Counted from the first letter of the stretch, positions 18,553-64,000 are shown. The stretch is 64,000 bases of DNA from an uncultured Acidobacteriota bacterium (GCA_963818355.1 CAWFSB010000040.1:86649-150648); one strand, 5' to 3'. Numbers and translations: made by a program. The notes: generated by a model from the sequence alone, not told the origin.

Positions 18553-18573
18553 CGCTCCCGGCGCTCCCGGGGT

Positions 18574-18598
18574 CCAGGGGGGCGGGATGCCCCCCTGG
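18574..18598 (+). terminator. GC-rich hairpin after malic enzyme 2
   Basis: CCAGGGGGGC-GGGAT-GCCCCCCTGG is a perfect 10-bp stem, followed by TT, about 20 nt after the stop. Confidence 0.5.
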
Positions 18599-18833
18599 TT
18601 GGAGGGCCGGTCCGTCGGCTCGTTTCGCAGGCCCTGTCGCAAAGCCCTGCGGAGAGTCTCGCAGTCCAGCGCCCAGTGACGGCCCCACGCCACGGCCGAG
18701 GCCATCGGATCCGCGGCGGGTCACGCGCGCCCCCTCCCCCGGGACAACGTCCGACACGAGCCGATGAGTCCCGGGAGAGGGGGCTCTCCGCGTGAGCCCG
18801 CCGCTACCCGTGGCTCTCGGCGGTGCTTGGGCT

Positions 18834-28456: not shown

Positions 28457-28526
28457 CGGGCCATCATAATGCGACGGCGGCGGCGGTCGGGCCCGGCTGA
28501 GTGGCGTGCTATGCTCCAAAGGCCCC

Positions 28527-42500: not shown

Positions 42501-42885
42501 CTTCCACGGCCACAAGATCGCGATCCTCAACGAGACGTCGGCGTCGGACGGCGACATCTTCCCGCACATGTTCCGCAAGGCCGGGCTCGGCCCGCTGGTC
42601 GGCAAGCGCAGCTGGGGCGGCGTCGTCGGGATCGGCGGCCAGGGGCCGATGATCGACGGCGGCAGCGTGACCGTGCCCTCGAGCGGCACCAACGACGTGG
42701 ACGGCCGGTGGATCATCGAGGGCCAGGGCGTCGAGCCGGACATCGTGGTGGAGAACGACCCGAAGTCGGTGATCGCCGGGCGCGACCCCCAGCTCGAGCG
42801 GGCGGTCGCGGAGCTCGTCAAGAAGATGGACGCCGAGCCGATGACGCTGCCGAAGCGGCCGGCGGACCCGGTGAAGACGCAGTGA
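39563..42885 (+). CDS. tricorn protease homolog (S41B; beta-propellers + PDZ + S41 catalytic domain) (frame breaks near 41308 and 42090)
   Basis: ORF 39563..42145 reads [23 protein letters not shown].. and has FSPDGK-type blades. It continues in ORF 41277..44060 ([36 protein letters not shown]) and then in ORF 42082..42885 ([36 protein letters not shown]). Confidence 0.85.
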
Positions 42886-45248: not shown

Positions 45249-45302
45249 AGTCCCCCGGGGCGCCGACGCTCGCCAGGCAGCGCCGGCGCCCTACCACTCC
45301 GA

Positions 45303-46755
45303 ATGAGCCCAGAGCCCCGCACCGACGGGCCGGCCACCCCGCAGGCACGCCGCCTCGCCGACCGCGCGCTGGCGGCCCTCGACGCCGTCATCGCGGCCAC
45401 GTCGGCCGTGGGCCTCCTCTACCTCGTTCTCGGCGGCTTCGACCTCGGCTTCCTCAGCGTGCGGCGCTTCTCGAAGCCGTTCCTGCTGCTGCTCGTCCTC
45501 GCCTCGCTGCGCGCCGCCATCCCCCGCCCTTCCTGGCTGCCACGCCTGCTGGCCGACGCCGCGCGGCGCGTTCGGGATCGGGCCACGATCCTCGACCGGC
45601 GCACTCCCTGGGCCGCGGCCGCCTTCGACGCGCTCGTCGCCGTGCTCACCGTCCACCTCCTCCCCAAGGGCACCGCGTTCCTCGCCCACGTCCTCTTCCC
45701 GGCGGCGAGGCCCCGGCCCTTCCCGATGCCGTTCGAAGCGGCGAAGTTCGCCGAGACGTTCGCCGCCTGGGACTCCGGCTGGTACTTCGACATCGCGCAG
45801 CGCGGCTACTACTGGAGCGCCTCGGGGCAGAGCAGCATCGCGTTCTTCCCGCTGTACCCGATGCTGATGCGGGCGCTGGCCTGGCCGTTCGGAGGCGGTG
45901 ACCGCGCGCTCTGGATCGCGGGGATCGCGCTTTCGTACGCGTGCCTCTTCCTGGGGCTCGCCGTCCTGCACCGCCTCACCGCGAAGATGTTCGGCGACCG
46001 CGAGACCGCCCGCCGCACCCTCCTCTACGTCGCCGTCTTCCCCTTCGCGTACTTCTTCACGCAGGTCTACACCGAGTCGCTCTTCCTGCTCACGAGCGTC
46101 TCGGCCGTGGCCGCGGCCGTGGCCTCGCGCTGGGGCTGGGCCGGCCTCTTCGGCGCGCTCGCCGCGCTCACCCGCCCGAACGGCATCCTGATCGCGTTGC
46201 CGCTGGGGCTCCTCGCCCTCGCCGGGCGGCCGCGGCTCGCCGAGCTCGATGCGACGCGCGGCGGCGCTCGCCCTGGTGCCTCTCGGCTTCGGCGCCTTCT
46301 GCGCCTACGCCTTCCGCCTCACCGGCGACCCCCTCGCCTGGCTGCACGCGCAGGCCCAGTGGGGCTACACGGTGGGCAACCGCCCCTGGGGCGAGCTGAT
46401 GCGGCTCCTCGACGGCCTCGAGCGGCAGGGCCTCTACGGCTACTTCTTCTCCGACCCCCTCGCCCCGTACTACTTCCTTCACGGCATGGTGGCGCTCGCC
46501 TTCGTGGCCCTGACGCCCAGCGTCTTCACGCGCGTGGGGGTCGCGCTCGGCGCCTACGTGGCGGTGAGCCTCTACCTGCCGCTCAGCGGGAACGCGCTCG
46601 AGGGGATCGGGCGCTACGCGGCGACGCTCTTCCCGGTCTTCATGCTGCTCGGGACGATCACCTCACGCCGCGTGCACGAGGCGATCCTGATCGGCAGCGC
46701 GCTGGTGCTGTCGCTCCTGACCAGCCTGTTCGCGGGCTTCTACCCGATCTACTAG
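45303..46755 (+). CDS. GT-C membrane mannosyltransferase, PIG-V-like (frame break near 46247)
   Basis: ORF 45303.. has WDSGWYFDIAQRGY, IAFFPLYPMLMRAL and TESLFLL. It continues in ORF 46249..46755 (multi-TM, ..GRYAATLFPVFMLLG..). Confidence 0.65.
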
Positions 46756-46760
46756 CCGCG

Positions 46761-47180
46761 TCAGGGGTTCGAGCCGACCGTCAGGGGGCGGCCGCTCGTC
46801 AGCCAGCCGCCGAGGCCGCCCGCGAGAACGCGAGCGTCGATGCCCTTCGCCTGCAGTGTGCGCGCCGCCCGGGCGCTCTCGTGCTCGTTCGGTCAGCCAC
46901 AGTAGAGGATCGGCAGCCGGCCCATCTTCCGGATCTCGACCGCCCGTTCCTCGATCTCGCTCGAAGGGATGTTCAGGGCGCCGGGGACGTGGCCCTCGGC
47001 ATACGACTCGCGCGAGCGGACGTCGATCAGCACCGCCTCGCCGCGGTCGCGGCGCTGGAGCGCCTCGGCGAGCGGCATGGCCGCGGCGTCGGGACCGGCG
47101 CCCTGCGGCCAGACGACGCAGCCGACGGCCGCGAGAGTCACGAGGAGGAGCGCGGGCAGTCGTCCGAGTCGGAGCTTCAC
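46761..47180 (-). CDS. rhodanese-domain lipoprotein with an in-frame TGA (complement 46893..46895)
   Basis: ORF 46893..47180 has a GTG start, the lipobox LAAVGC, then VLIDVRSRESYAEGHVPGALNIP..LPILYCG*. The same frame continues after the TGA with PNEHESARAARTLQAKGIDARVLAGGLGGWLTSGRPLTV..*, which is the rest of the rhodanese fold. Confidence 0.65.
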
Positions 47181-47218
47181 GAGACGATCCTAGCATCGGG
47201 CGAGCACTGGACGGCCCC

Positions 47219-48126
47219 ATGATCTCTCGTCCTCGCGCTCTGCTCGGAATCCTGGCTCGGCGGCCGGACCGCCCTCGCCGATCCGGGTCGAGGCCCTCGC
47301 CCGGGAGACGCCGGAGGGCCCGGTTCGCGCCTGGCTCGCCCGCGTCGATCTCAACGACCCGCGCGTCAGCTTCGTCGTCACCGGCCCGCTGGAGCGGCGG
47401 GAGGGCGACCCGGAGCGCGCCGAGGCCCGCCTCGTGCCGACCGACGTCTGGGCCGAGAGAGAGGGCGTCGACCTGGCGGTGAACGCCAGCTTCTTCGCAC
47501 GCCTCGAAGGAGCCGGCGCTCCGGTGCTCGGCTGGACCGACGCGCTGCCGGTGGATCTCGTCGGCCTGTCTCGGAGCGAGGGACGCACGGTCTCCCCGCC
47601 GCGCCGCGGCGGAGGCGTCGAAGCACCCGCCGACCCGGCGCTACTCATCGACGAGGCGAAGGACGGGCACTGCCCGTGCCAGGCACGCGCCGCTCACGCG
47701 GGCGAGAGCGATCTCGACGGCGTCGAGGAAGCGGTGGCGGGCATGGGCGCCCGGAACGGGAACCCGGGCACGCTTCTCGTCGAGAACGGCCGAAACCTCG
47801 GGGCGACCGCCCAGGTGGCACCCACCCAACGTCACCCGCGCACCGCGGCCGGCGTCACTCGCGACGGGCGGACGTTGCTGCTGCTCGTCGTGGACGGCCG
47901 GCAGGCGGGCTGGAGCATCGGCGCCACCCTGCCGGAGCTCGCGCAGACGATGCTCGACGCCGGCGCCTGGAACGCCGTCAACCTCGACGGCGGCGGCTCG
48001 TCCGCGATGTGGCACCGGGAGCCGGGAGCGACGGCCGGACGCGTCCTCAACCGCCCGAGCGACGGCCACGTCCGGCCGGTGGCGAACCACCTGGGCGTGC
48101 GACTCTCGACCGGGCCGCTCCGGTAG
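47219..48126 (+). CDS. phosphodiester glycosidase family protein (NAGPA/DUF2233-like); N-terminal frame uncertain
   Basis: ORF 47434..48126 has AVNASFF, HPRTAAGVTRDGRTLLLLVVDGRQ and AVNLDGGGSS. The frame extends upstream (RVEALARETPEGPVRAWLARVDLNDPRVSF). ATG 47219 lies in a different frame, so there is probably a break near 47260. Confidence 0.6.
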
Positions 48127-48160
48127 CGTCTCCGGACCGCCGGCGCTGTGATCCGCATCC

Positions 48161-51100
48161 TTGACCGACGCGCGCCAGCACCCTAACCTTGCTCACTTGA
48201 TCGAGTCAGCCACTCCAGGGCCGCGGGAGGCCCTCCAGACGGCCGGTACCGCCGTGCCCGAGGTGTCTCCGACCGACATCGCGGTCGTCGGCCGGGCCCT
48301 CCGGGTGCCCGGCGCGCGCAACGTATCCGAATTCTGGGACAACCTTCACCAGGGCAAGGAGTCGATCCGCCGCCTGAGCGACGACGAGCTCCGCGCCCGC
48401 GGGGTGGACCCGGCCCTCCTCGCCGACCCCGCCTACGTGAAGTGGGGCGCCCCGCTCGAGGACCTCGAGCTCTTCGACGCGGGCTTCTTCGGCTTCAGCC
48501 CGCGCGAGGCCGCGATCATGGACCCCCAGCACCGCCACTTCCTCGAGGTGGCCTGGGAGGCGCTCGAGGACGCCGGCCACGCGCCGGAGTCGTTCCCGGG
48601 ACGGATCGGGGTCTTCGCCGGGTCGGGCATGAGCGCCTACATGCCCTACCACCTCTTCACGAACCCGAAGCTGATGGCGTCGGTGGGCCTCTTCCTCGCG
48701 CGGCACACGGGGAACGACAAGGACTTCCTCACCACGCGCGCGTCCTACCTGTTCGACCTGCGCGGCCCCTCGGTCAACGTCCAGACCGCCTGCTCCACCT
48801 CGCTCGTCGCGATCCACGCCGCCGGCCAGAGCCTCGTCAACCACGAGTGCGACCTGGCGCTCGCGGGAGGCGTGACGATCGAGCTGCCCCACGGCCTGGG
48901 CTACCTCTACCACGAGGGCGAGATCCTCTCCGACGACGGGCACTGCCGCGCGTTCGACCGGCGGGCGAAGGGCACGGTCTTCGGGAGCGGGGCCGGCGTC
49001 GTGGTCCTGCGGCGGCTCGGGGACGCGCTCGAGGACGGCGACACCGTCTACGCCGTCGTCAAGGGCTCGGCGGTGAACAACGACGGGGGCCGGAAGGTCG
49101 GCTACCTGGCGCCCAGCGTCGACGGGCAGGCCGAGGCCGTGGCCGAGGCGCTCCACGTCTCCGGCGTGCCGGCCGACTCCGTCACCTACGTCGAGTGCCA
49201 CGGGACGGGGACGCCCGTGGGCGATCCCATCGAGGTGACGGGCCTGACCCAGGCCTTCCGCTCCTTCACCGAGCGCTCGCGCTTCTGCGCCATCGGCTCG
49301 GTCAAGACGAACATCGGCCACCTCGACACCGCGGCGGGTGTCGCGAGCTTCGTCAAGGTCGTGGAGATGCTGCGGCACCGCACCCTGGCGCCGAGCCTGC
49401 ACTTCCGCGAGCCCAACCCCGAGGTCGATTGGGAGAAGACGCCGTTCTTCGTCGCCGACCGGGCGGCGCCGTGGCCCTCGGACGGCCCTCGCCGGGCCGG
49501 CGTCAACTCCCTCGGCGTCGGCGGGACGAACGCCCACGTCGTCGTCGAGGAGGCGGCCGCCCCGCCGCCTCCCGCGCCCTCGCGCGGACCGACGCTCGTC
49601 CTGCTCTCGGCGCGGACGAAGGCCTCGCTCGACCGGGCCACGGCCCGCCTCGCGGACCGGCTGGAGGCCGACCCTTCCCTCGACCTCGCCGACGCGGCCT
49701 TCACTCTGGCCGCGGGTCGGCGCCGCTTCGCCGAGCGCCGCGCCGTCGTGTGCGCGTCGCGCGAGGACGCGGTCGAGGCGCTGCGCTCGCCGGCGAGGCG
49801 GCTCGGCGCCGCGAGCGACCGCTCGGGCACGAAGGTCGCCTTCCTGTTCCCGGGCGGCGGCGCCCAGTACCCCGGGATGGCGTCGGACCTCTACCGATCG
49901 GAGCCGGCCTTCCGGGCGCGGGTGGACGAGTGCCTGGCGCTCCTCCGCACGCGCGAATCTCTCGACCTGCGCCCTCTCATGTTCCCCGTCGCGGGGGCCG
50001 AGGCCGCGGCGGCGGCCGAGCTCCTCCGCCCCTCCCTGGCGCTGCCCGCGCTGCTCACGATCGAGCTGGCCCTCGCGGAGCTGCTGCGGTCGTGGGGCCT
50101 CACGCCCGTCTCGATGATCGGCCACAGCCTCGGCGAGTACGCCGCCGCGCACCTCGCCGGCGTGTTCTCCCTGGCCGACGCGCTCGGCGTCGTGACCTGC
50201 CGCGGCCGGCTCTTCGAGACGCTGCCCGAGGGGGCGATGCTCTCCGTGCCGCTCCCCGAGGCGGAGGTCGCAGCGGATCTTCCCCCCGGCCTGTCCTTCG
50301 CCGCGATCAACGGCCCCGGCCTGTGCCTCGTCTCGGGCGAGGTCGGCCTCATCGCCGGGCTCGAGTCGCGGCTCGCCGCCCGCGGCGTCGAGGCGAAGCG
50401 TCTGGCGATCGCGGTGGCCGCGCACTCGCCGATGCTCGAGCCCATCCTGGGCCCGTTCGAGAAGTACCTGCGATCGCTGCGCCTCGCCGAGCCGACCCTG
50501 CCGTTCGTCTCCAACGTCACGGGCACGTGGATCCGCCCGGAGGAGGCACGCGATCCCGCCTACTGGGTGAGGCACCTCCGTCAGCCCGTGCGCTTCGCCG
50601 ACGGCCTGCAGGCGCTCGTCGCGCAAGGGAGCCCGGCCCTCCTCGAGGTGGGCCCGGGCCGGACGCTCACGTCTCTCGCCCGCTCGCACCCGGCGGTCGG
50701 CGCGGGGAGATCCGTCATCCCGGCGCTGCGGCACCCGCAGGACCCCACGAGCGATCTCGAGGCCGTGCTCGCGGCCATGGGTCAGCTGTGGATGGCGGGC
50801 GTCGATGCCGACTGGCGGGCGTTCTTCGGGCCGGGGCGCCAACGGGTCAGCCTGCCGGCCTACTCGTTCGACCACGAGCGGCACTGGATCGAGCCGGGCG
50901 ACGGCTTCTTCCTCCGACCGGAGAAAGCGACGGCCCTCGCGAGGAACCCGGACCGCTCCGCGTGGACGTACCGGCCGGTGTGGCGGCGGAGCGAGACACC
51001 CCGGCGCCGGGCGGTGGCGGCACGCAACGTCCTCGTGTTCGAGGACGGGACCGGGCTCGGCCGGGAGCTGGCGCTCGAGCTGCGCGCCGCCGGCCACGCG

Positions 51101-54100
51101 GTCGACATCGTGCGGCCGGGCGACGGCTTCGGACGCGACCCGGACGGGGCGTTCCGGCTCCGGCCGGACAGCCGCGAGGATCACGCGGCGCTCCTGCGCG
51201 AGGTGGGCGCGGCCGGACGGACTCCCTCCCAGATCGTCCACCTCTGGGGGGTGAACGAGGACGACGGCCTCGACTCGGCGCTCGAGCGAGGCTTCTTCCC
51301 CCTGGTCCGGCTCGGCCAGGCCCTCCTCGACGAGGAGCCCGCGGGCCGCGTCGAGATCGTGGTCGTGACGAGCGGCGCGGAGGGCGCGGGACGCGACGCT
51401 GCGCCACGCTTCCCCGCCAAGGCGCTCGTGCAGGGCCCGGCGAGCGTTCTCCCACGCGAGCTGCCGTTCGTCTCCTGCCGCTCGGTCGACCTGTCCTCTT
51501 CGCTGGCTCCCACGGCGGCCTTCGCACGGCAGCTCGCCGCCGAGCTGGAGGCGGAGACGGACGAGGGCCGCGTGGCCATCCGCGACGGCGAGCGGCTGGT
51601 CGAGGCCTACGAGCGTTGGCCTCTCGCGGAGGCCACCGTGCCGTGGCGCGAGCAGGGCGTCGTGCTGATCACGGGCGGGCTGGGCGGCCTGTCCCTCGCG
51701 CTCGCCGAGCGCCTCGCGCGCGAGGCGAAGGCCCGCTTCGTCCTCGTCGGCCGCACGGGGCCCGATCCCAGCGACCCCGACGATGCTCGGAGCCGGGCCA
51801 TCCGCGCGATCGAGGCGGCGGGAGGCGAGGTCCTCGTCGTCACGGGAGACGTCGCCGAACCGGCCACCCTGAGGCGCGCCGTGGCGGAGGGCGAGGCGCG
51901 CTTCGGCGCGATCCACGCCGCCGTCCACGCCGCCGGCGTGATCGACGACGGCCCTCTCCACGGGAAGGAGCGCGGGGGCCTCGAGGCCGTGCTGCGACCG
52001 AAGGTGCACGGCGCTCTCGCGCTCGTCGAGGCGCTTCGCGGCCGGAAGCTCGACGCTCTCGTCTTCTTCTCGTCCACGAGCGTGGCCCTCGCCCCCGCCG
52101 GCCAGGTGGACTACGTCGCCGCGAACGCGTTCCTGAACGCCTACGCCCGCCGGCTGGCCGCGGAGGGATGGCCCGCGCGCGTGGTGCAGTGGGGGGCCTG
52201 GCGCGACGTGGGGATGGCCGTGGCGGCGCTGCTGCCCGTCCGCGTGCCGCCGGGGTGCCTGCCGGTCGAGCATCCCCTCCTCCAGCGACGCCTCGAGAGG
52301 GACGGCGAGACCGTCTTTCCCGCCGTCCTCGACGCGAAGCAGCAGTGGGTCCTCGACGAGCACCGCCTCCGCGGCGGCGACCCCGTCCTGCCCGGGACCG
52401 CGTTCGTCGAGATGGCGCGGGCCGCCCTGGCCGCCTCCGCTCCGGCGGACGGCGCGATCGAGATCTCCAACCTGGCGTTCACGGCCCCACTGGTCGTGCC
52501 CGAGGGCGAACCGCGCCTGGTCGAGACGGAGCTGCGCCCCGCGGAGGATGGCTCGGTGGCGATCTCCATCCGAAGCGTGCCGGCCCGCGGGCCGGCCGTC
52601 GAGCACGCGGCGGGCCGTGTGCGCGCGCTCGACGGCTGGGCTCCGGGCACGATCGACGTCGCGAGCCTCGAGGCCCGGTGCACGCTCGGCCGCCAGAGCT
52701 TCGGCCCCGGCGAGCAGAGCCTGCCGCAGGAGCAGGCGCTGGCCTTCGGGCCCCGATGGAAGGCGGTCCGCCGCATGGCCTTCGGCTCGGCGGAGGCGGT
52801 GGCGCACCTCGAGCTGCCGGAGACGCTCGCCGGGGACCTCGAGACGTACGGCCTTCACCCCGGCCTCCTCGACATGGCCACGGGCTTCGCGTTCTCCCTC
52901 GTCGAGGGCGGTGCCACCCTGCACGCGCCGCTGTCGTACGGCCGGCTGCGCGCGGCACAGCACCTGCCCCGCCGGGTCGTCAGCCACGTGCGCCTGCGCC
53001 CCGGGTCCGGCCCGGGAGTCGGCGTCCTCGACGCGACGCTCGCGGACGAGCAGGGTCGGGTGGTGGCCGAGATCGAAGGCTACGTGGTGAAGGCGGTCGA
53101 GCCCGGCGTCCTCGGCCACCGCGCGGAGCCGCGCCCACCGTCGCCGCTCGAGCGCTGGGTCGAGCACGGGATCACCCCCGACGAGGGCTTCGACCTCTTC
53201 CGTCGCGTCCTCGCCCAGGACCGCGAGGTGCAGGTCCTCGTCTCCCCTCTCGATCTTCACTCGATGATCGCGGAGCTGCGCCCGAAGCCACCGGTCACGA
53301 GCCCGGCCCAGCCTGCGACCCCGGCGACCGCATCTCCCGAGGGGGCCGGGACCGCACCCCGCGACGAGATCGAGGCGAAGCTCGCGGCGATGTGGCGCGA
53401 CCTGCTCGGCGTCGAGCAGGTGGGTCTCCACGACGGCTTCTTCGCCCTCGGCGGCCACTCGCTCGTCGCGGTGCGGCTCTTCGCCCGGGTCAAGAAGACG
53501 TGGGGCGTGGACCTGCCGCTCGCCACGCTGTTCGCGGCGCCGACGCTCGAGGCCCTGGCCGCGAGGGTGCGTGAGCCCCTCGGCCTGACCCTCGACACGT
53601 CGAGCCCCGGGGCCGTCGAGCCCGGCTCGCCGCCCGCGAAGACCGGCTGGTCGCCTCTCGTCCTGATCCGCAAGGGAGGCTCGCGGCTGCCGTTCTTCTG
53701 CGTGCACGGCGCCGGCGGGAACCTGCTCGTCTTCCGGGACCTCGCGGAGAGGCTCGGGCCCGAGCAGCCCGTCTACGGCCTCGAGGCCCGCGGCGTCGAC
53801 GGCCACCTCCCGCCCGCGGCGAGCATCGAGGAGATGGCGGAGATCGTATCTCGAGGCGATCCGCGGCGTGCGGCCTCGCGGCCCGTACCTCCTCGGCGGC
53901 TACTCCGGGGGCGGTGTCGTGGCCCTCGAGATGGCCCGGAGGCTGACGGCGGCGGGAGAGCGCGTCAGCCGAGGTCGTGCTCCTCGACACCTTCCACCCC
54001 GCGACCGAGGCGCACAGGACCGCCCTGCGCGATCACCTGAGCGGCCTGGCGGCCGAAGGCATCGCCGTATCTGCCCCGGCGGGCGCGCGCGACGCGCGGC

Positions 54101-54455
54101 CCGGCACCTCTCCAGACTGCCGCAGGAGCTGCGCCTGCGGTACTACCTGAGCCGCGGCCGGCCGCTGCCCCACGACCTGCGCGACGCGCACCTCACCCGG
54201 CACTTCCTCGAGGTCTCGCGCCGCCACGTGCCCGGCCCCTACGGGGGCCGGGTGACGCTCTTCCGAGCCCGCGAGATGGACCGTGTCTACGCGCACATGG
54301 GACCGCGCCTCGGCTGGGAGCCGGTGCTCCTGCTCCCCGTCTCGAGGTTGTCGAAGTGCCCGGGAAACCACGATACTATCGTCCGCGAACCCAACGTCGG
54401 CGTCCTCGCCTCCCTCCTCGAGGATCTCCTACTCCGTGCTTCGTCCGGGAGCTAG
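48161..54455 (+). CDS. type I polyketide synthase, KS-AT-KR-DH-ACP-TE (several frame breaks in the TE region, 53850-54370)
   Basis: ORF 48161..54040. KS: TACSTS (Cys 48791), ECHGTGT, NIGHLDTAAG. AT: GHSLGE (Ser 50126). KR: ITGGLGGLS (~51670) and YVAANAFL. DH: HRLRGGDPVLPG (His 52361). ACP: LGGHSL (Ser 53459). TE: FFCVHGAGGN, GGYSGGG (Ser 53904, ORF 53868..54455) and PGNHDTIV. Confidence 0.9.
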
Positions 54456-54470
54456 AGCCTCGGGCAGGAG

Positions 54471-57400
54471 GTGAGTCCATTGGCGGTCCACTCGTGGGTC
54501 CTCGTCGGCGAAGGGACGCTCCTCGCCGGCTGCGGCGACATCCTCCTGGGACTCGGCCAGCGCGTCGCGGCGGTCGTCACGGCGCGAGCCGACGATCGAG
54601 CGCTGGGCCTCGGAGAAGGGGATCCCCGACCCACCGCTCCGACTCGGGACCTCGCCTCCGTCCTGCGGGGCCTCGACTTCGACCACCTCGCGAGCATCGC
54701 GCATCTCTCGATGATCCCGGCGGAGGCGCTGGGCCTGGTGCGCGGCCTCGCCGTCAACTTCCACGACGGGCCCCTGCCCCGCTACGCGGGGCTCAACGTC
54801 ACGAGCTGGGCGATCCTCGGCCGCGAGACCACGCACGGCGTCACGTGGCACGAGATGACGGCGCGGCCCGACGCGGGACGGCTTCTGGAGCAGCGCATCT
54901 TCGACGTGGCTCCCGACGAGACGGCCTTCTCGCTCAACGCGAAGTGCTACGCGGCCGGGCTCGAGTCCTTCACGGACCTGGCGCGCCGCGTCGCCGCGGG
55001 AGATACCGGCGGTCGCGAGCAGGACCTCGCCGGGCGGAGCTACTTCGGCCGCCACGATCGGCCGGCGGCGGCCGCGGTGATCGACTGGCAGGCGGCGGCC
55101 GACGAGATCGCCGCCCTCGCGCGCGCCCTCGACTTCGGGCCGCACCCGAACCCCCTCGCGCTGCCGAAGGTTCTCCTGGGAGACGGCTTCGTCTTCGTCG
55201 GCCGCGCCGATGTGACCGACGGGCCCTCGGGCCTGCCGCCGGGAACGGTGGCGGCCGTCCTGCCGAATGGCCTGCAGGTCGCCACTCGCACGGCGGACAT
55301 CCGTGCTGGGCGAGTTCCGCGAGCCCGACGGCGCCGCGGTCACGGTCGCCGAGGCCGCGCGACGGCACGGCCTCGTCCCCGGGAAGACGCTGCCGCCCCT
55401 CACCGCGGCGATGGCCGCGCGGCTGACCGAGCTCTCGGCCGGGGCGGCGCGATCCGAGGCGGCCTGGCGAGCGACGCTCTCGAGCCTCGCGTTCCCGGAC
55501 CTCGATCTCCCGGCGGATACGGGTGACGGACGCTCGGCGCTCGCCGGGCGCACGCTCGAGCCGGCCCTCCTCGAGCGCCTCCCGCGAACCGGGCGGGTCG
55601 ACGCGCTCGTGGCGGCGATCGCCGTCCTCACCGCCCGCCGGTCCGGGACGTCGTCGTTCGACATCGCGTATGGCGACGACCGACTGTCCTCGCACGTCGA
55701 GGGCACCCACGGGACCTTCCCCGCCGCCCTGCCGCTGCGCGTGACGCTCGATCGCACCGCGCCGTTTGCGGCCGCGGTGGCGGCCGTAAGGGCGGCGCGC
55801 GAGGAGCTCCAGCGGCGTGGCCCCCACGCCGCCGACCTCTGGGCCCGCGACCCCGCGCTACAGGAGGCCGCTCGAGTGGGCGGCCTCCGGGCGGCGACCG
55901 TGTCGGTCGGCGTCGGCGTGGAGCCGCCCGCGGGACGGATCCGCATCGCGCTGGCTGTCGACGGCTCGGACTGCCGCGCTGCTCGGCGACAGCACGGTGG
56001 AGGCTCTCACCGCCCAGCTCGAGGCGGTGATCGCCGGCGTCTGCGACGCGCCGGAGCGACCTCTCGCCGAAATCGATCTCGTCACCCCGGAGGAGCGGGA
56101 TCGGCTCCTGGGGACCTGCAACGATACGGCCCGCCCCGTCCCCGAGGCCTGCATCCACGCGCTCTTCTCCGAGCAGGCGAGGCTCACGCCGGACGCCACC
56201 GCCCTCGTCTTCCGCGGCCGCCGGATGAGCTACCGCGAGCTCGACGAGCGGACGAACCGCCTCGGGCGCCACCTGCGCGGCCTCGGGGTCGCGCCCGGGA
56301 CCCTCGTCGGCATCCTCCTCCACCGCTCCTTCGCGATGGTGGAGGCCGTCCTCGGCACGCTCAAGGCCGGCGGGCGCCTACGTGCCCCTCGACCCCACCT
56401 ACCCGGCCGAGCGCATCGACTTCATGGCCCGCGACGCCGGCCTGGGGCTCGTCCTGACCGAGGAGAGCCTCCGCTCCCGGGTCCCGGCGGGCACGGGACG
56501 GGTCGTGGCTCTCGACACGGAGCCCGGCGAGATCGCGCGCGGCGTCGGCCGAGCCGCTCGAGGGCGGAGCCTCTCCCTCGGACCTCGCCTACGTCATCTA
56601 CACCTCGGGCTCGACCGGCCGGCCGAAGGGCGTGATGGTCGAGCACCGCAACGTCGCGAACTTCGCGGTCGGGATGGACGAGCACCTCGACCGGTCCGAT
56701 CCGAAGACCTGGCTCGCCGTCACCAGCCTGAGCTTCGACATCTCGGTGCTCGAGCTGCTCTGGACGCTCGCGCGAGGCTTCACGGTCGTGCTGCACCGCG
56801 ACGAGGAGCGCGAGTCCTTCGTGGCCGCCGCTGCCCCGCGACGCCCGGTGGACTTCAGCCTCTTCTACTTCTCGAGCGACGCGTCCGAGCACGAGCAGGG
56901 GAAGTACCGCCTGCTCCTCGAGGGCGCGCGCTTCGCCGACCGCAACGGCTTCGTCGCGGTCTGGACCCCCGAGCGCCACTTCCACGCGTTCGGCGGGCTC
57001 TACCCGAACCCCGCCGTCACCGGCGCCGCCGTGGCCGCGATCACCGAGAGGGTCGGGATCCGCGCCGGAAGCCTCGTCAGCCCGCTGCACTCGTCGCTGC
57101 GGATCGCCGAGGAGTGGTCGGTGGTCGACAACCTCTCGAACGGCCGCGTCGGGATCTCCTTCGCCGCGGGCTGGCAGCCGAACGACTTCGTCCTCCGCCC
57201 CGAGTCCTTCGCCGCGCGCAAGCAGGTCATGCTCGACCAGATCGAGGAGGTGCGCCGCCTCTGGCGCGGCGAGGCCGTGTCGTGCGCCAACGGCGCCGGC
57301 GAGACGGTCGAGGTGCGGACCCTCCCGCGGCCCGTCCAGCCGGAGCTTCCGGTCTGGGTCACGATCGCGGGCAACCCCGAGACCTTCGTGGCCGCGGCGC

Positions 57401-59116
57401 GATCGGGGGCCCACGTCCTCACCCACCTCCTGGGACAGAGCGTCGAAGAGGTTGCGGAGAAGGTGGCTCTCTACCGCCGCGCCTGGCAAGAGGCGGGACA
57501 CCGCGGGTCGGGGACGGTCAGCCTGATGGTCCACGCCTTCGTGGGAGACACGGACGAGGCGGTGAAGGACGTCGTCCGCGGCCCCATGAAGGACTACCTG
57601 CGCAGCGCGGTCGGCCTCGTGCGCGAGGCGGCCTGGTCGTTCCCCACGTTCAAGGAGAAGGCCACGAGCGCGAGCGGGGAGTTCGACCCCGACAGCCTGT
57701 CTCCCGAGGAGATGGACGCGCTCCTGGAGCACGCCTTCGAGCGCTACTTCGCGACGAGCGGGCTCTTCGGCAGCCCCGACACCTGCCGCCGCTTCGTCGA
57801 ACGGCTGGGTGGGATCGGCGTCGACGAGGTGGCCTGCCTCGTGGACTTCGGCGTGCCCAGCGACACCGTGCTCGCCCACCTGCCGCGCCTCGCCGAAGTG
57901 GCGCGGACGTTCGGGAGAGACACCGTTCCCGCGCGCCCTCCGGAGCGCGCCGAGGCCGAGACGATCCCGGCGCTCGTCGAGGCCCACGGCGTCACGCACT
58001 TCCAGTGCACGCCGACGATGGCCCAGATCCTGCTCCAGGACGAGCCCTCGCGGCGCGCGCTCGGGCGCCTGCGCCAGATGCTCGTCGGCGGCGAAGCCCT
58101 GCCGGACCGCCTCGCGCACGAGCTGGCCGGCCTCGTGGGCGGCGTGGTGACCAACGTCTACGGGCCCACGGAGACGACCGTCTGGTCCTCCGTGGCCCGC
58201 GTGCCCCGGGACGGCTCGCCGGTGACCATCGGGTTCCCGATCGCCAACACGAGCCTGCACGTCCTCGACCGCGACGGCCGGCTCGCGCCGGTCGGCCTCG
58301 CCGGCGAGCTGCACATCGGCGGGAGCGGCGTCGTCCGGGGCTACTGGAACCGCCCGGACCTCACCGCCGAGCGCTTCGTGCCGAACCCCTTCGGCGAGGG
58401 CCGCCTCTACCGCACGGGCGACCTCGTGCGCCGTCGCGAGGACGGCGCGCTCGAGTTCCTCGGGCGGCTCGACCACCAGGTGAAGGTCCGCGGCCACCGG
58501 ATCGAGCTCGGGGAGATCGAGGCCCGCCTGGCGGAGCACCCCGGGGTGCGGGAGGCGGTCGTGGTCGCGCGCGACGACGGGGCCGGGGCCGACCTCGTGG
58601 GCTATGTCGTCCCGCGCAACGGCGCGCTCGGCCGAGACGGACCTGCGCGAGCACCTGCGCGCCCGCCTGCCGGAGCACATGATCCCCCGCGCGTTCGTCA
58701 CGCTCTCGGCCCTGCCGATGACGCCAAACCGCAAGATCGACCGCAAGGCGCTCCCCGCGCCCCACCGACATCCCGTCGTCGTCGCCCCCGCGGCGCGACC
58801 GGAGGGGGCTCTCGAGGAGACGATCGCCGCGGTCTGGCGCGAGGTGCTCGAGCTCCCGGACGTGGGGGTCGACACGAACTTCGCCGATCTCGGCGGCCAC
58901 TCGCTGGCGATGGTCCAGGTCCTCGGCAGGCTGAGGGAGCGCGTGGACGCCTCGGTCACCCTCGTGGACCTCTTCCGCCACACCACGATCCGAGCGCTCG
59001 CGCGCTTCCTGGCCGCGAGCGGCAACGAGGACGCGGCCCTGGAGACGAGCGCCTCGCGCGCCACTGCCAGGCGCAACGCCCTCCAGGCTCGCACCCTGAG
59101 GTCACGTCGATCGTGA
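54471..59116 (+). CDS. NRPS 1: formyltransferase domain - C-domain-like remnant - A domain with embedded luciferase-like monooxygenase - PCP (frame breaks near 55300, 55975, 56375, 56540, 58630)
   Basis: F domain: ORF 54471..55526 (SIAHLSMIP..AVNFHDGPLPRYAG..GVTWHEM, His 54762). C-lobe-like region: ORF 55267.. (VDALVAAIAVLTARRSG..FDIAYG..FPAALPLRV). A domain: LTPDATALVF, KAGGAYVPLD, YTSGSTGRPKG (~56599), FDISVLE, then the LLM at 56848-57900 (VDFSLFYFSS..RFADRNGFVAVWTPERHF..), then NVYGPTETT, GELHIGG, YRTGDL, VKVRGHRIELGEIE and PNRKIDRK. PCP: LGGHSL (Ser 58901). Confidence 0.85.
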
Positions 59117-62100
59117 AGACGAGCGGGCCAGGCACGATCACCACGATTGGCGATCGATTCCGGGCAGTGTCGTCTCAGCGCGCGCAGCATCCCGCCCTGG
59201 TCTGGGCTGATGGCAGCCTGACCTACGGAGAGCTCGATCAGCGGTCGACCGCGCTCGCCGGGAGCCTGCAAGCGCTGGGTGTTCGGCCCGGTGATCGGGT
59301 CGGGCTGCACATGACGCGCTCGCCGGAACTGATGCTCGCGATTCTCGCCACGGTCCGCATCGGCGCCGTGTACGTGCCTCTGGAGCCGACCTACCCGGCC
59401 GAGCGCCTGGGATGGATGATGCAGGATGCCGACCTGAGCCTGCTGCTGACTCAGGGGGGATTGCCGCTACTCGCCTCCGTGCCCTGCCCGGCGCGCGACA
59501 TTGCCGACACCCCGGACGGACGGATGACCGGCGTTTCCGTGACTCCGTCAGCGCCGGTCTATGTCATGTACACGTCGGGCTCGACCGGCACCCCCAAGGG
59601 CGTCGTGGTGCCACAGCGCGGCATCCTGCGGCTGGTGTGCGATGTCGACTACGTGCAACTGGATCGCAATACCCGCATCCTGCAGCTGGCGCCCAACTCG
59701 TTCGACGCCGCGACGTTCGAGGTCTGGGGCGCATGGTTGAACGGCGGCACCCTGGTTCTGGCCCCTCCCGGGATTCCCGACCTCGTCACCCTCGGACGCT
59801 TGATCGCGGACGAGCGGATCAACACGATGTGGCTGACGGCATCGCTCTTCAACGTCGTCGTGGACGAGTCGGTCTGGATCCTCCGGCCATTGAGCCAGCT
59901 TCTCACCGGTGGCGAAGCGTTGTCACTCCCGCACGCAGGGCGGGCGATGGCGGCACTGCCCGGCCTCAGGCTCATCAACGGGTACGGCCCCACCGAGAAC
60001 ACCACGTTCACCACCTGCTACACCGTTCCATCGGACATCGACGGGGCTCTACCGTATTCCCCCCTGGGCTACCCGATTCGCGACACCGTCGTGCGCGTGC
60101 TCGACGAGACGTTGCGGCCAGTCCCGTCCGGGGAGGTCGGCGAGCTGTGCCTCGGGGGCGCCGGCGTGGCCCTGGGCTACCTCAACCGGCCGGAACTGAC
60201 CGCCGAGCGCTTCGTTCCCGACCCCGAAGCCCCGGGGACCCTCCTGTATCGCAGCGGAGACCTGGGCCGGCGTCAGCCGGACGGCTTCGTCGAGTTCCAC
60301 GGCCGCCGAGACCAGCAGGTGAAGGTGCGCGGCTATCGCGTCGAGCCGGGCGAAATCGAGGCAGCTCTGGCGCGTATCGAAGGCGTGCGCCAGGCCGTCG
60401 TCGTGCCGCACTCTTCCCCGGGCGGCGATGTGTCGCTGGTGGCGTTCGTCGTCGGCCACGGCGGAGGCGGCGACCCGCATCACCTCCGCGCCCGTCTCGC
60501 CGAGCAACTGCCGGCGTGGATGATCCCGACGCGGTTCGTGCTGCTCGGCGCCCTGCCCCTGAACGCCAATGGCAAGGCCGATCGTCAGCAGCTGCTGGCC
60601 AGCGTCTCCATGTTGGGCGGCCCTCCCCGGCGTGAACTGGCGGACGCGCTCGAGGCCCGGGTACTCGAGATCTACCGAGGGGCGCTCCACGTACCGGATT
60701 GCCAACCCGACGACCGCTTCGTCGATCTCGGCGGGCAGTCGATCCAGGCACTGATGATCGCCAGCCGCCTTGAGCGTGAGTACGGCCGCCGGATTCCGCT
60801 CTGCTGGGTCTACGACTACGGCTCGCCGGCAGCCCTGGCCACGGCATTGCGTGACCGCCCGCCCGAACCCGACCCCATCATGCCGGCGCCGCCGGTCATC
60901 GAACCCACGCCCGGGTTGTCCTTCCCGCAGGAGCGCGTGTGGTTCCTGCAGCAGCGTTACCCGGACTGCCGCGCCTACCACTTCCAGGCGACCTTGGAGT
61001 TCACCGGCGCGCTGGACGTCTCGGCCCTGGAACGGGCGCTGAGCGAGATCGTCCGCCGCCACGCCATCTTGCGCTCGGGGTTCCCGCTCGGTCGCCAGGG
61101 TCCCGAGATGGCCCCGCGTGAGCCGGAACCCGTCGTCCTCGCTCCGCTACGGACAGACGACGTGCCAACACTCTTGGCCGAGGAGTTCCTCGCGCCGATG
61201 GACGTCGTCCACGGCCCGCTCGTCCGCTGGCGACTGCTCCGGCTCGGGCCCGACCGTCACCTGCTCGTGCAGACCGAGCACCACCTGGTGCACGACGGCT
61301 GGTCGTTCAACCTCCTGCTCGACGAGATGCAGGGACTCTACCGCGCTTCCCGGGAGGGCCGGCCCTCGGCCCTTCCCCCGGCGCCCGACTTCGCCGCGGT
61401 GATGAGCGCCTGCCGGGCGCGTTACGAGCGGCGGCGGGGCGAGGACGAGCGCTGGTGGAGGCAGCACCTCGACGGCTGCGCGCCCGCGATGTCGCTGCCC
61501 TGGGATCACGCGCCCTCCGGTCGGGAGTCGTTCGAGGGCCTTACGGTGCGCCTGCCACTGTCGCGGCGCCTGATCGACGCGCACCGGGATCTGGCCCGAG
61601 CGCTCGGCACCACACCCTTCGTGACCCTGCTGAGCGCCTTCCTGATCCTGCTGCACCGCCACAGCGGGCAGCACGACCTGTGTATCGGCAGCGGCGTCGC
61701 CAACCGCACCGACCCGGAGGTCGAGCGCCTGCCCGGCATGCTCGTCAACACCCTGCTGCTGCGTTTCGACCTCGCCGGCGACCCCAGCGTGGCCGAGCTC
61801 GCGCAGCGCGTGCACCGCACGACGTTGGCAGCCTGGGATCACCAGGGCATGCCGTTCGACCGCGTCGTGTCGCTCCTGCGTGAGGACGGCCCGATCGGCG
61901 ATTGGTCGTCGCCGGAGGTGATGTTCAGCGTCCACAACTCGCCTTCCACGCCGATCGATTGGCCCGGCTTGAAGGTCCGCGTGACCGAGGGCCTGAGCTA
62001 CGGCACGGCCAAGGTGCCGCTGAACGTCGTCCTGTTGCCGGCGCATCCCGATCCGGAGGCCCCGGACGATCCGGACGCGCCGGCAATGACGCTGATCTGG

Positions 62101-63294
62101 GAACACTGCACCGCGCGCTTCACCGAACGCACCATGCACGCCTGGCGCGGCGAATACCTCGACCTGCTCGAGCGGCTGCCCCGGTCGGCAGCAGGGCCGA
62201 TCTCGGAGCTCGCGGGCGCCACGGCGAGCCCCCCGGTAGCGACGGCCTCGGCCGCTCCTCCGCCGACGGGAAGCTCGAAGCGGCCTCCACCGTCGGATGA
62301 CCCGCGCGGCGAGTACATCCGCAGCGAGCTGTCCCGCATCTGGGCGGCGTGGTTCGAACGACCGGTTGGCCCCGATGAGCGCTTCTTCGATCTCGGCGGC
62401 CATTCGTTGCTGGCCGTGCGCCTGGTGGTCCGCATCCGCGAGGCGTTCGGGGTCGAGGTGCCGCTGGGGACGTTCTTCGACAACCCTACGATTGGCGGGT
62501 TGGCGGCCACGATTGCCCTCTCGGGCGATGGCGGTGCGCGCGGGCTGTGGCGCAACGTCGCCCCGGGACCACCCATTGCGCCCCTTTGGGCAGTGCCCGG
62601 CGCTCATGCTCGCGAGGAGCATTGGTACGTCCACGCCGCGATCGCCCGGACGTTTCGAAGGAAGCGCCCGGTCCACGTCTTGTACCCGCCACATTCCCGG
62701 AAGCAGCCCGACGTCGAGACCATCGCGTCAGAAGCCGTGGACGCTTTGCGCGACGTCCAGCCGCAGGGCCCCTACGACCTCGTCGGCGACTGCCTCGGTG
62801 GAGTGCTCGCCTTCGAGATCGCCCGCCAGCTGACGGCCCGCGGGTGCACGGTCGGGCGGCTCGTGCTTCTGGATTCCCTGTATCCTGCACGTCGGCCGGG
62901 CTCGAGGCTCGCGCAGGCGGCGAGGGGCTCGACGCGGGCGCGCCGGCTGTGGCTCAGGTGCCTGGCGGGCGGCCACCGGCTGGCGGCGCTGAAGGCGCGA
63001 CTGGACGGACGTGGCGCCACCGCTGGTCGGGAGCACCTGGACCTCGCGCGGCACCTGGTCCCGCCGAGGTACAGCGAGAAGTACACACTCGAGCTCGCCC
63101 GCTACCGCCTTCGGCCCTGGGATGGGGCTCTGGACTACGTCGTCAGCGAGAGTCTCGCCGGGCGCCTCCCTCAGCAGGCCTGGGAGCCTCACGTGGCCGC
63201 GGTCCGCGTGCACCGGGCCGCGGGAGACCACGTCACCTACCTTCGCTCGCGCCTGGAGGACAACCGCGAGCTCCTTCGGTCGTTGCTGGAGTAG
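59113..63294 (+). CDS. NRPS 2: A - PCP - C - PCP - TE (TE nucleophile motif GDCLGG)
   Basis: GTG 59113 overlaps the NRPS-1 stop (GTGA). The gene is uninterrupted in the frame of ORF 56632..63294. A: YTSGSTGTPKG, FDAATFE, NGYGPTENT, YRSGDL, VKVRGYRVEPGEIE. PCP1: LGGQSI (Ser 60739). C: HHLVHDG (61279..61299). PCP2: LGGHSL (Ser 62404). TE: GDCLGG (Cys 62791) and GDH near the C-terminus. Confidence 0.9.
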   Translation: MKTSGPGTITTIGDRFRAVSSQRAQHPALVWADGSLTYGELDQRSTALAGSLQALGVRPGDRVGLHMTRSPELMLAILATVRIGAVYVPLEPTYPAERLGWMMQDADLSLLLTQGGLPLLASVPCPARDIADTPDGRMTGVSVTPSAPVYVMYTSGSTGTPKGVVVPQRGILRLVCDVDYVQLDRNTRILQLAPNSFDAATFEVWGAWLNGGTLVLAPPGIPDLVTLGRLIADERINTMWLTASLFNVVVDESVWILRPLSQLLTGGEALSLPHAGRAMAALPGLRLINGYGPTENTTFTTCYTVPSDIDGALPYSPLGYPIRDTVVRVLDETLRPVPSGEVGELCLGGAGVALGYLNRPELTAERFVPDPEAPGTLLYRSGDLGRRQPDGFVEFHGRRDQQVKVRGYRVEPGEIEAALARIEGVRQAVVVPHSSPGGDVSLVAFVVGHGGGGDPHHLRARLAEQLPAWMIPTRFVLLGALPLNANGKADRQQLLASVSMLGGPPRRELADALEARVLEIYRGALHVPDCQPDDRFVDLGGQSIQALMIASRLEREYGRRIPLCWVYDYGSPAALATALRDRPPEPDPIMPAPPVIEPTPGLSFPQERVWFLQQRYPDCRAYHFQATLEFTGALDVSALERALSEIVRRHAILRSGFPLGRQGPEMAPREPEPVVLAPLRTDDVPTLLAEEFLAPMDVVHGPLVRWRLLRLGPDRHLLVQTEHHLVHDGWSFNLLLDEMQGLYRASREGRPSALPPAPDFAAVMSACRARYERRRGEDERWWRQHLDGCAPAMSLPWDHAPSGRESFEGLTVRLPLSRRLIDAHRDLARALGTTPFVTLLSAFLILLHRHSGQHDLCIGSGVANRTDPEVERLPGMLVNTLLLRFDLAGDPSVAELAQRVHRTTLAAWDHQGMPFDRVVSLLREDGPIGDWSSPEVMFSVHNSPSTPIDWPGLKVRVTEGLSYGTAKVPLNVVLLPAHPDPEAPDDPDAPAMTLIWEHCTARFTERTMHAWRGEYLDLLERLPRSAAGPISELAGATASPPVATASAAPPPTGSSKRPPPSDDPRGEYIRSELSRIWAAWFERPVGPDERFFDLGGHSLLAVRLVVRIREAFGVEVPLGTFFDNPTIGGLAATIALSGDGGARGLWRNVAPGPPIAPLWAVPGAHAREEHWYVHAAIARTFRRKRPVHVLYPPHSRKQPDVETIASEAVDALRDVQPQGPYDLVGDCLGGVLAFEIARQLTARGCTVGRLVLLDSLYPARRPGSRLAQAARGSTRARRLWLRCLAGGHRLAALKARLDGRGATAGREHLDLARHLVPPRYSEKYTLELARYRLRPWDGALDYVVSESLAGRLPQQAWEPHVAAVRVHRAAGDHVTYLRSRLEDNRELLRSLLE

Positions 63295-63338
63295 CCGAGA
63301 GGGCTCGGCGCGGTCGCCTCGCGTGGGCGCCCTGCGAT

Positions 63339-64000
63339 ATGCTCGCGGCCCGGGAGATCGCCATGCTCGACATCCGCCGCATCCGGGATCAGTTCCCCAT
63401 CACCCGCCAGCGCTTCCAGGTGCTCGGCCAGACCGAGCCGAAGCCCCTCATCTACATGGACCACGGGGCGAGCACCCATCCGCCCTCACCCGTGCTCGAC
63501 ACCTACAAGGACTTCCTCGAGCACTCCTACGCGAACGTCCACCGGGGACGCCACTACCTCTCGGAGATGGCCACCGACCGCTTCGAGCACGTCTCGGACG
63601 ACATCTTCCGCTTCATCCACGGGAGCCGCTCCGCGAACACGGTGATCCTGTGCGGGAACACCACCCAGGCCCTCGACCTCGCGGCCCACGTCATGGCGCA
63701 CCGCAAGGGCGTCACCCTCGTGTCGCTGATGGAGCACCACTCGAACGACCTGCCCCACCGCGCGCGGGGCCGGGTCGTCCACTTCGGGGTGAAGGACGAC
63801 GGGACCCTCGACTACGACGACCTCGAGGCGAAGCTGCGCGAGCACGAGGTGAAGCTCGTGGCGGTCACGGGCGCCTCGAACGTGACCGGCTACCTCCCGG
63901 ACATCCACCGCATCGCGCGCATGGCCCACGCCCGCGGGGCGAGGATCCTGATCGACGGCGCCCAGATCCTCGCCCACGCGCCGTTCGACGTGCTCCCCGA
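63339..64000 (+). CDS. class-V PLP-dependent aminotransferase / cysteine-desulfurase-like enzyme (5' part, runs off right edge)
   Basis: Not in the track because it has no stop. The start is ATG 63339 or 63363: MLDIRRIRDQFPI..IYMDHGASTHPPSPVLD..YANVHRGRHYLS..CGNTTQALDL..EHHSNDLP..VTGASNVTG. Confidence 0.75.
   Translation, partial: MLAAREIAMLDIRRIRDQFPITRQRFQVLGQTEPKPLIYMDHGASTHPPSPVLDTYKDFLEHSYANVHRGRHYLSEMATDRFEHVSDDIFRFIHGSRSANTVILCGNTTQALDLAAHVMAHRKGVTLVSLMEHHSNDLPHRARGRVVHFGVKDDGTLDYDDLEAKLREHEVKLVAVTGASNVTGYLPDIHRIARMAHARGARILIDGAQILAHAPFDVLP

Follow-up and report, generated by a model that had tools for sequence, protein, structure and literature searches.

Adenylation (A) domains that activate glycine and carry an embedded flavin-dependent monooxygenase (FMO, MOX or MOx) have been described in nonribosomal peptide synthetases (NRPSs). 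In MtaG (myxothiazol) and MelG (melithiazol) the FMO lies in the a4-a5 interval of the A domain; embedded FMOs alpha-hydroxylate glycyl thioesters, and in these two pathways the hydroxylated N-acyl-glycyl thioester is cleaved to an amide and a two-carbon glyoxyl thioester, while in solanimycin the hydroxyl group is retained (PMC10204066). MOX has also been described as cleaving the glycine backbone, and all four characterised MOX-bearing glycine domains share the specificity code DILQLGMIWK (PMC12283262). Another described system is OzmO (oxazolomycin), a loader of 1,196 aa composed of formyltransferase (F), glycine A and peptidyl carrier protein (PCP) domains, which feeds a polyketide synthase (PKS) (PMC9057759). 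Here we analyze a gene located at positions 54471-59116 (+ strand) of a 64,000-nucleotide DNA stretch from an uncultured Acidobacteriota bacterium (GCA_963818355.1 CAWFSB010000040.1:86649-150648; the whole stretch is referred to below as the window). Once eight inserted bases are removed, the gene encodes a loading NRPS of 1,545 aa with the organization F-deltaC-A(LLM)-T, where deltaC denotes a relic half of a condensation (C) domain, LLM an FMN-dependent luciferase-like monooxygenase and T a carrier (T/PCP) domain.

The novelty of this protein lies in the joining of a formylating glycine loader to an LLM-interrupted glycine A domain, each of which is already known. To our knowledge, embedded LLMs in glycine A domains are otherwise confined to a handful of elongation and termination modules, which give terminal amides or retained alpha-hydroxyglycine. 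A literature search found no paper in which an F domain is described alongside an LLM-interrupted A domain; the survey of interrupted A domains (PMC8341866) covers methyltransferase insertions, and the TAD preprint concerns another amidation domain. Together with an adjacent PKS, F-deltaC-A(LLM)-T apparently forms a widespread, uncharacterised cassette. From the domain content and by analogy with the described systems, we consider it reasonably likely that the protein is a starter, which would load glycine, N-formylate and alpha-hydroxylate it, and pass it to the PKS.

Domain organization of the loading protein

The embedded domain corresponds to an open reading of 351 codons that spans positions 56848-57900 (+). 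The original prediction, which had been made from the sequence alone, called it a luciferase-like monooxygenase, and this was upheld by both profile searches performed. The insert matched TIGR04020 (the NCBIfam model of the MupA/Atu3671 FMN-dependent LLM) with 519.6 bits (cut-off 244.45; E 3.5e-156) from end to end, insert residues 3-351 covering profile positions 1-340 of 341, and Pfam Bac_luciferase with 154.7 bits, which assigns it to the natural-product subfamily of LLMs. The closest solved structure is 6KET (E 8.6e-111 by sequence), the flavin-utilising OX domain of the hybrid PKS/NRPS PuwE. The PuwE OX and other PKS/NRPS LLMs of the same NCBIfam subfamily are ∼47-55% identical to the window LLM; however, the PuwE OX is a domain of a hybrid PKS/NRPS and not an A-domain insert. 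In an AlphaFold model built on P0001, a protein 99% identical to that of the window (mean pLDDT 82.5), the LLM forms a separate domain with a low-confidence linker on each side, and it matches 6KET with a target TM-score of 0.90. The pTM of the model was 0.54, and inter-domain geometry was therefore left uninterpreted. A structure search found no LLM-interrupted A domain among solved structures; the only interrupted A domain met was the methyltransferase-interrupted 5WMM. The LLM is predicted to be a catalytically intact FMN-dependent domain held in a surface loop of the A-domain core.

The part of the A domain upstream of the insert (56162-56847, +) includes the linker VVLHRDEERESFVAAAAPRRP and matches Pfam AMP-binding profile positions 1-242. 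It contains the core motifs A1 (56225), A2 (∼56360-56417), A3 (AYVIYTSGSTGRPKGV, 56587-56634) and A4 (FDISVLE, 56734-56754). A3 and A4 are in the same frame as the LLM, and so are, on its 3' side, the Q278 region with THFQCTPTM (57964-58020), the L299/G301 region MLVGGEAL (58078-58101), A5 (NVYGPTETT, the start of NVYGPTETTVWSS; 58153-58191), A6 (58303), A7 (58408) and A8 (58462-58521). The downstream linker and the remaining A domain occupy 57901-58760 (+), with A9 (58667) and A10 containing K517 (58724-58753), like the T domain, in the next frame, past a frameshift at 58631. When the LLM is removed and the A domain spliced, its alignment with the second LgrA A domain consists of two blocks abutting at LgrA residues 1441/1448, the second block corresponding to LgrA residues 1448-1715. 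The LLM and its linkers (∼31 and ∼21 residues) replace a short loop after the strand following A4. It should be noted that the LLM begins 31 residues past FDISVLE and stops ∼84 residues ahead of NVYGPTETT. Motif coordinates and the LgrA alignment thus place the insertion point within the A4-A5 interval, after Stachelhaus position 239 and before position 278. The A4-A5 interval is where it had been predicted and where, by the published description, the monooxygenases of MtaG and MelG also lie (PMC10204066).

A second, motif-anchored manual reading of the specificity code gave DILQLGVVWK, the same as that originally proposed. It agrees at 8 of 10 positions with DILQLGMIWK, which is both the homologue consensus (in sets of 27 and of 40 homologues) and the code of the characterised MOX glycine domains (PMC12283262). 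The two differences, M322V and I330V, are conservative, and the domain is assigned to the glycine type, as predicted.

The F domain extends over 54471-55392 (+) and was identified with Pfam Formyl_trans_N and Formyl_trans_C and the NCBIfam formyltransferase model. It contains an N-x-H motif, AVNFHDGPLPRYAG (54750-54791), and a catalytic Asp within ARPDAGRLL (54861-54887); the catalytic Asn, His and Asp (NFHDGPLP, D-x-G) are invariant in seven full-length homologues from different phyla. In a comparison with the Protein Data Bank (PDB), the F domain matched WbkC-type 5VYT with E 1.9e-16; ArnA and FMT were also matched, and the F domain of LgrA was found at ∼5e-3.

Between F and A, ∼250 residues (55393-56161, +) are assigned as deltaC, the relic C-terminal half of a condensation domain. 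The assignment is based on one pairwise BLASTP comparison, in which deltaC was colinear with residues 193-460 of the C domain of homologue P0124 (27% identity, E 1e-4), and on the precomputed PF00668 matches of two stand-alone F-deltaC homologues. Against Pfam Condensation the segment scored 18.5 bits, which is under the gathering score, at profile positions 277-324 (C5 region). DeltaC contains no HHxxxDG motif, its alignment with homologues had few invariant columns, and phmmer gave no match to deltaC in the PDB.

The T domain (58823-59014, +; FADLGGHSL at 58880-58915) is recognized by Pfam PP-binding in homologues P0121 and P0001, and its GGHSL, holding the serine, is invariant among homologues. 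The protein ends directly after T (C-terminus ...RTLRSRRS; stop codon at 59114-59116). No thioesterase (TE) domain was found in it, and P0001, P0121 and the orthologues from five GTDB genomes likewise end after T. No NCBIfam model matched the loading protein as a whole, and the partner PKS was matched by generic models only.

F, A and T are present in one polypeptide, as in formylating NRPS initiation modules (F-A-T). Since deltaC is without the catalytic N-lobe, the module would be unable to condense an upstream chain, and would have to be a starter. We classify it as an initiation module, F-deltaC-A(MOx)-T, and not as a terminal, amide-forming C-A(MOx)-T-TE module. The original prediction had noted the formyltransferase ahead of the A domain and the missing TE, in line with the NCBIfam and Pfam domains, and its caution that the chemistry may differ from that of MtaG and MelG is justified by the initiation-module domain content. 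The likeness that it drew to these two proteins holds for the A(LLM) unit, that is for the insertion site, the consensus code and the expected reaction (alpha-hydroxylation of an N-acyl-glycyl thioester), but not for the type of module, since the protein lacks a working C domain and a TE. In addition, the N-acyl group would be formyl rather than a polyketide or peptide chain, and the partner is a one-module reducing PKS, often in a polysaccharide biosynthesis context.

It is very improbable that the protein acts as an amide-forming module of the MtaG/MelG type, in which a PKS chain would be condensed onto glycine, hydroxylated and freed as a primary amide. Such a function would fit the shared A(LLM) unit and the PKS located immediately upstream in the window, as well as the existence of sister C-A(LLM)-T proteins with a full C domain (P0124, L002, L011), which are found beside the same kind of ketosynthase (KS) or in polysaccharide loci. 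However, the window protein begins with F and has only the C-terminal half of a C domain, without HHxxxDG, and the TE is carried by the PKS and not by the NRPS.

As an initiation module, the protein resembles OzmO in published architecture: both have an N-terminal formylation domain, a glycine A domain and a carrier, and feed a PKS. The differences are that OzmO lacks a monooxygenase insert and leads to an oxazole. The loaders of conglobatin and inthomycin are related to the OzmO-type F-A(Gly)-PCP. In LgrA (linear gramicidin) an F domain fused to A-T formylates the tethered amino acid, and the A domains align well; in contrast to the window protein, LgrA has a distant F domain, lacks both the relic C lobe and the LLM, and loads valine. 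SolF (solanimycin) has a glycine A domain with an embedded FMO, and its alpha-hydroxyglycine is kept and extended by PKS/NRPS modules, which provides a precedent for a non-cleaving outcome; unlike the window LLM, the SolF FMO sits after a8 and not in the a4-a5 interval, and SolF is an elongation module (PMC10204066).

Frameshifts and gene boundaries

As assembled, the loading gene contains five +1 frame changes and consists of six frame segments, which were traced with a frame plot of the GC content at third codon positions and a six-frame Viterbi track. Eight single-base insertions were located, at 54581, 54628, 54644, 55303, 55978, 56373, 56541 and 58631. Their removal yielded a single open reading frame (ORF), 54471-59116, with no in-frame stops, and the corrected protein shares 73% identity with the intact homologue P0121 (1,542 aa) in an alignment of 1,517 aa. 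The insertions at 54581, 54628 and 54644 garble ∼22 codons of the F domain (∼54581-54650), and local correction brings back the family consensus ...TREPTIERWASEKGIP.... All frameshifts of the host gene lie outside the LLM insert.

The window was compared with contig L001 (ENA ERZ25039527 contig_11163), which is 98.67% identical over window positions 46369-64000. The two sequences differ by 29 single-base indels in 17.6 kb, and in 22 of these it is the window that has the additional base. Window-specific extra G's are found at four of the five frame changes, while the fifth (ggcgGgcgcc, 56373) is common to both; the extra G at 58631 is missing from L001. In the A(LLM) region there are 22 substitutions, 18 of them synonymous and 19 at third codon positions, which indicates that the loading gene is under purifying selection. 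Given these substitutions, the differing indels of L001 and the intact homologues of 1,542-1,626 aa, the eight insertions are probably assembly or sequencing errors. Real frameshifts, in a decaying cluster whose module is non-functional in the window organism, are highly unlikely. The density of lesions (eight in 4.6 kb), the insertion shared with L001 at 56373, and frameshifts in the TE region of the PKS and in other window genes speak for decay; against it, every lesion is a +1 insertion and such lesions occur throughout the window, also in housekeeping genes, the corrected gene is free of stops and intact orthologues are common. For L001, a long-read assembly is suggested by its contig name and by the numerous single-base indels.

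The window is thus indel-ridden, and its long ORFs, ORF lists and gene boundaries are not to be trusted at face value. Other genes are also split over frames, e.g., that of a tricorn-like protease (39593-42882). The possibility that an ORF of 2,220 aa (56632-63294) encodes one A(MOx)-T-A-T-C-T-TE protein was discarded, as the loading NRPS stops at 59114-59116 and a separate gene follows. This ORF is an artefactual fusion of two genes, the frame being open by chance over the frameshifted T-domain region. Neither the fusion nor the eight insertions, the relic half C domain and the conserved family with its PKS partner had been part of the original prediction.

Family, partner polyketide synthase and genomic context

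With A(LLM) as the query, 4,905 proteins were found at E <= 1e-10 among 8,000 candidates scored; all of the best 120 matches (120/120) have AMP-binding and Bac_luciferase domains, and most also have PP-binding. Family size was assessed by an exhaustive search with the F domain, which gave 1,274 representative clusters at E <= 1e-30 (a word-indexed search with F-deltaC gave 21 matches). The full-length F-domain matches fall into two length classes, ∼1.2 and ∼1.55 thousand amino acids (kaa). Among 26 representative clusters of 1.5-1.65 kaa, 20 combine F, AMP-binding, Bac_luciferase and PP-binding. The ∼1.2-kaa class is F-deltaC-A-T without the LLM and comprises ∼24 of the best 150 F-domain clusters; OzmO has the same length. 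One such F-deltaC-A-T protein, P0147 (1,192 aa), has kept both LLM-flanking linkers (HRDSLHEDFVAA... and ...IAALIERHGVTH) and a glycine-like code, and looks like the result of a clean loss of the inserted LLM.

Intact F-deltaC-A(LLM)-T proteins (1,542-1,626 aa) comprise P0121 and those of five GTDB representative genomes (1,546-1,626 aa): the cultured Acanthopleuribacter pedis, Agrobacterium sp. AGB01 and Roseovarius sp. S4756, and the metagenome-assembled Agarilytica and Ca. Leptofilum. A scan of genome contigs with generic A-domain peptide patterns gave 79 loci, of which ∼17 were true A(LLM) relatives and the rest ordinary NRPSs. The same LLM insertion is also found in elongation modules (L015, L016, L050). 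On these sequences, F-deltaC-A(LLM)-T is judged to be a large conserved family, present in several phyla with its own PKS partner, and not a one-off.

Stand-alone F-deltaC proteins of ∼560-595 aa were observed as well (P0132-P0144, and Polaromonas L086, 10001-11746). In Polaromonas, F-deltaC is encoded directly after a multidomain C-A-methyltransferase-T NRPS and before a phosphopantetheinyl transferase (PPTase), so F-deltaC can also be a separate protein.

The partner of the loading NRPS in the window is a type I PKS (48161-54458, +), in which Pfam domains of the ORF translation define the order KS-acyltransferase (AT)-ketoreductase (KR, structural and catalytic)-dehydratase (DH)-acyl carrier protein (ACP)-TE. 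The corresponding motifs are at 48785 (KS Cys), 50114 (AT GHSLG), 51662 (KR), 52352 (DH), 53441 (ACP) and 53687 (TE); the protein ends with ...LLLRASSGS (54426-54452), and its TE part is frameshifted around 53847-54116. KR precedes DH in this PKS. A KS 56-68% identical to that of the window adjoins the loading NRPS in 11 loci, across phyla. In L004, the two genes overlap at the NRPS stop codon. Gene order differs between loci: in the window, L003, L009, L013 and L014 the PKS precedes the NRPS, and in L004, L006, L008 and L017 it follows the NRPS. In the Agarilytica locus (L008), a flavin reductase gene (19678-20181) is located directly 3' of the partner PKS and could plausibly supply the LLM with reduced FMN; a gene of this kind was not observed in the window.

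Of the 12 contexts examined, 8 had clear genes for polysaccharide assembly or export within 10 kb. The Agrobacterium context contains Wzx, Wzy, Wza, Wzz/BY-kinase, GT2, GT4 and a PPTase, and in Roseovarius the PKS and the NRPS are accompanied by Wzy, GT2 and Wzx. Agarilytica has exosortase EpsH/EpsI and a chain-length determinant, and metagenomic relatives have Poly_export, Bac_transf, WecG, Hexapep and NTP_transferase. Clear polysaccharide genes were absent from the other 4 of the 12 contexts, among them Acanthopleuribacter, Leptofilum and L085. Because the pathway is often located inside polysaccharide assembly or export loci, its product may be polysaccharide-linked or a glycosylated small acyl unit.

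These contexts also bear on another explanation, which we regard as distinctly unlikely: that F, or a T-bound (formyl/hydroxy)glycyl group, acts on an amino sugar or polysaccharide and decorates an exopolysaccharide directly, with no hand-off to the KS, so that the NRPS and the PKS would work in parallel instead of as one colinear line. The best solved relatives of the F domain are the sugar N-formyltransferases WbkC and ArnA, the polysaccharide contexts contain Wzx, Wzy, Wza, Wzz, priming or other glycosyltransferases or exosortase genes, and in the window lineage a PIG-V-like mannosyltransferase and an NAGPA gene lie upstream of the PKS and a Wzz-like gene downstream in L001. However, all intact members have F covalently joined to A-T, the family includes ∼1.2-kaa F-deltaC-A-T loaders without a sugar context, the KS partner is co-conserved, and a third of the contexts (4/12) are without clear polysaccharide genes.

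According to Martens et al. (2007), cited in PMC5014874 and PMC4062626, a PKS/NRPS/glycosyltransferase/PPTase cluster is conserved in roseobacters; its product is given as unidentified. F-deltaC-A(LLM)-T and a PKS occur with glycosyltransferase, Wzx and Wzy neighbours in the Roseovarius, Nioella and Pelagimonas loci, and by gene content set against this published description, the Rhodobacterales loci are probably that cluster. The window and L001 differ from the cluster, as cited there, in that they have a PKS, an NRPS and a PPTase but no adjacent GT2/GT4, and contain extra NRPS, SufS-like and SpeE-like genes. A literature search found no paper with a product for the roseobacter cluster.

Downstream of the loading gene, a separate NRPS gene (59101-63294, +; start codon uncertain) encodes A-T-C-T-TE, as indicated by Pfam, by motifs and by its counterpart in L001, a gene of its own of 1,327 aa. 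The code of its A domain, read manually, is DAFWLGGTFK (Val-like), and its second T is without its own A domain. C-T-TE units recur with the family: in L017 (2470-7593) two tandem C-T-TE proteins are encoded upstream of the cassette. The next gene (63363-64000, +), of which only the start lies in the window, encodes a SufS-like class V enzyme dependent on pyridoxal phosphate, identified from the L001 gene list, translations, NCBIfam and Pfam; it matches the cysteine-desulfurase family with 306 bits, under the SufS cut-off. In L001 the SufS-like gene is followed by genes for a spermidine-synthase-like protein, an Sfp-type PPTase (16980-19710, from SufS-like to PPTase), a Wzz/GNVR-like protein and another NRPS.

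The genes that immediately precede the PKS encode a PIG-V-like mannosyltransferase (45249-46752, split by a frameshift) and an NAGPA phosphodiester glycosidase (47281-48099), and are the sole local hint of a glycan link in the window. Elsewhere in the window, divergent malic-enzyme paralogues stand side by side (14802-16531, -; 16862-18547, +). The region 24682-28549 (-) encodes a PMT_2 (GT-C) membrane glycosyltransferase with GDSL/SGNH hydrolases on both flanks, and is followed by genes for a FadL-like outer-membrane protein and a type I phosphodiesterase (28554-31713). Rfam and tRNA scans of the window were empty.

Proposed chemistry and its implications

From the domains, insertion point, specificity code, motifs, PKS pairing and contexts described above, we infer the following chemical steps, their order and the fate of the product. 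Glycine would be loaded onto the carrier by the A domain, as suggested by the specificity code. By homology to F-A-T loaders, and as proposed for the OzmO type, F would then N-formylate the tethered glycine with N10-formyl-tetrahydrofolate. The LLM, with reduced FMN and O2, would hydroxylate the glycine C-alpha, as do the embedded LLMs of MtaG, MelG and SolF. The characterised embedded FMOs act on N-acyl-glycyl thioesters, and formyl is the minimal N-acyl group, which suggests that formylation comes before hydroxylation. The resulting N-formyl-2-hydroxyglycyl thioester would be transferred to the KS of the one-module PKS (KS-AT-KR-DH-ACP-TE), where one malonyl extension, reduction and dehydration could be followed by release by the TE.

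It is also possible, but unlikely, that the carbinolamide collapses with loss of formamide, leaving a glyoxylyl thioester on T, which would be a PKS starter or be hydrolysed. Hydroxylation followed by cleavage is the course described for MtaG and MelG (PMC10204066), cleavage of the glycine backbone is attributed to MOX (PMC12283262), and the window A(LLM) has the insertion site and consensus code of domains of this type. Against this, a conserved and apparently catalytically intact F domain would be a costly detour to a glyoxylyl-S-T, the alpha-hydroxyglycine of solanimycin survives many further extensions (PMC10204066), and the glyoxyl thioester of MtaG and MelG is removed by a TE of the same module, whereas the loading protein has none.

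Several points weigh against a starter that passes N-formyl-2-hydroxyglycine to the PKS. The F domain is nearer to sugar N-formyltransferases (E 2e-16) than to the LgrA F domain (∼5e-3), so that a sugar substrate is possible, and at positions 322 and 330 the window code has V where the consensus has M and I. The loading gene is frameshifted as assembled, with the frameshift at 56373 also present in L001. As the gene order varies between loci, colinearity gives no direction for the transfer. The window variant contains additional genes (A-T-C-T-TE, SufS-like and SpeE-like) that the proposed steps do not explain. Finally, the order of formylation and hydroxylation is an assumption, and the N-formyl carbinolamide may collapse rather than be extended.

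If the proposed starter chemistry is combined with the polysaccharide contexts, the two enzymes could be seen as an uncharacterised, horizontally spread cassette that makes an N-formyl hemiaminal C4 acyl unit (or an aldehyde, after loss of formamide), which is placed on, or primes, a Wzx/Wzy- or exosortase-dependent exopolysaccharide. We offer this only tentatively, as a doubtful but conceivable extension. Its range would cover Acidobacteriota, Alpha- and Gammaproteobacteria (including the roseobacter PKS/NRPS cluster), Myxococcota, Chloroflexota and many soil metagenome lineages, and, if true, it would represent a new class of assembly-line-derived polysaccharide modification.

The LLM-split glycine A domain is thus found joined to a formylating starter that is abundant, occurs across phyla, is paired with one particular PKS and is often located in exopolysaccharide loci. 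If the proposed chemistry is true, N-formyl-2-hydroxyglycyl would be a new starter unit, and a testable hypothesis would be available for the orphan roseobacter PKS/NRPS cluster, as well as for the culturable Agrobacterium, Roseovarius and Acanthopleuribacter that carry the same protein.

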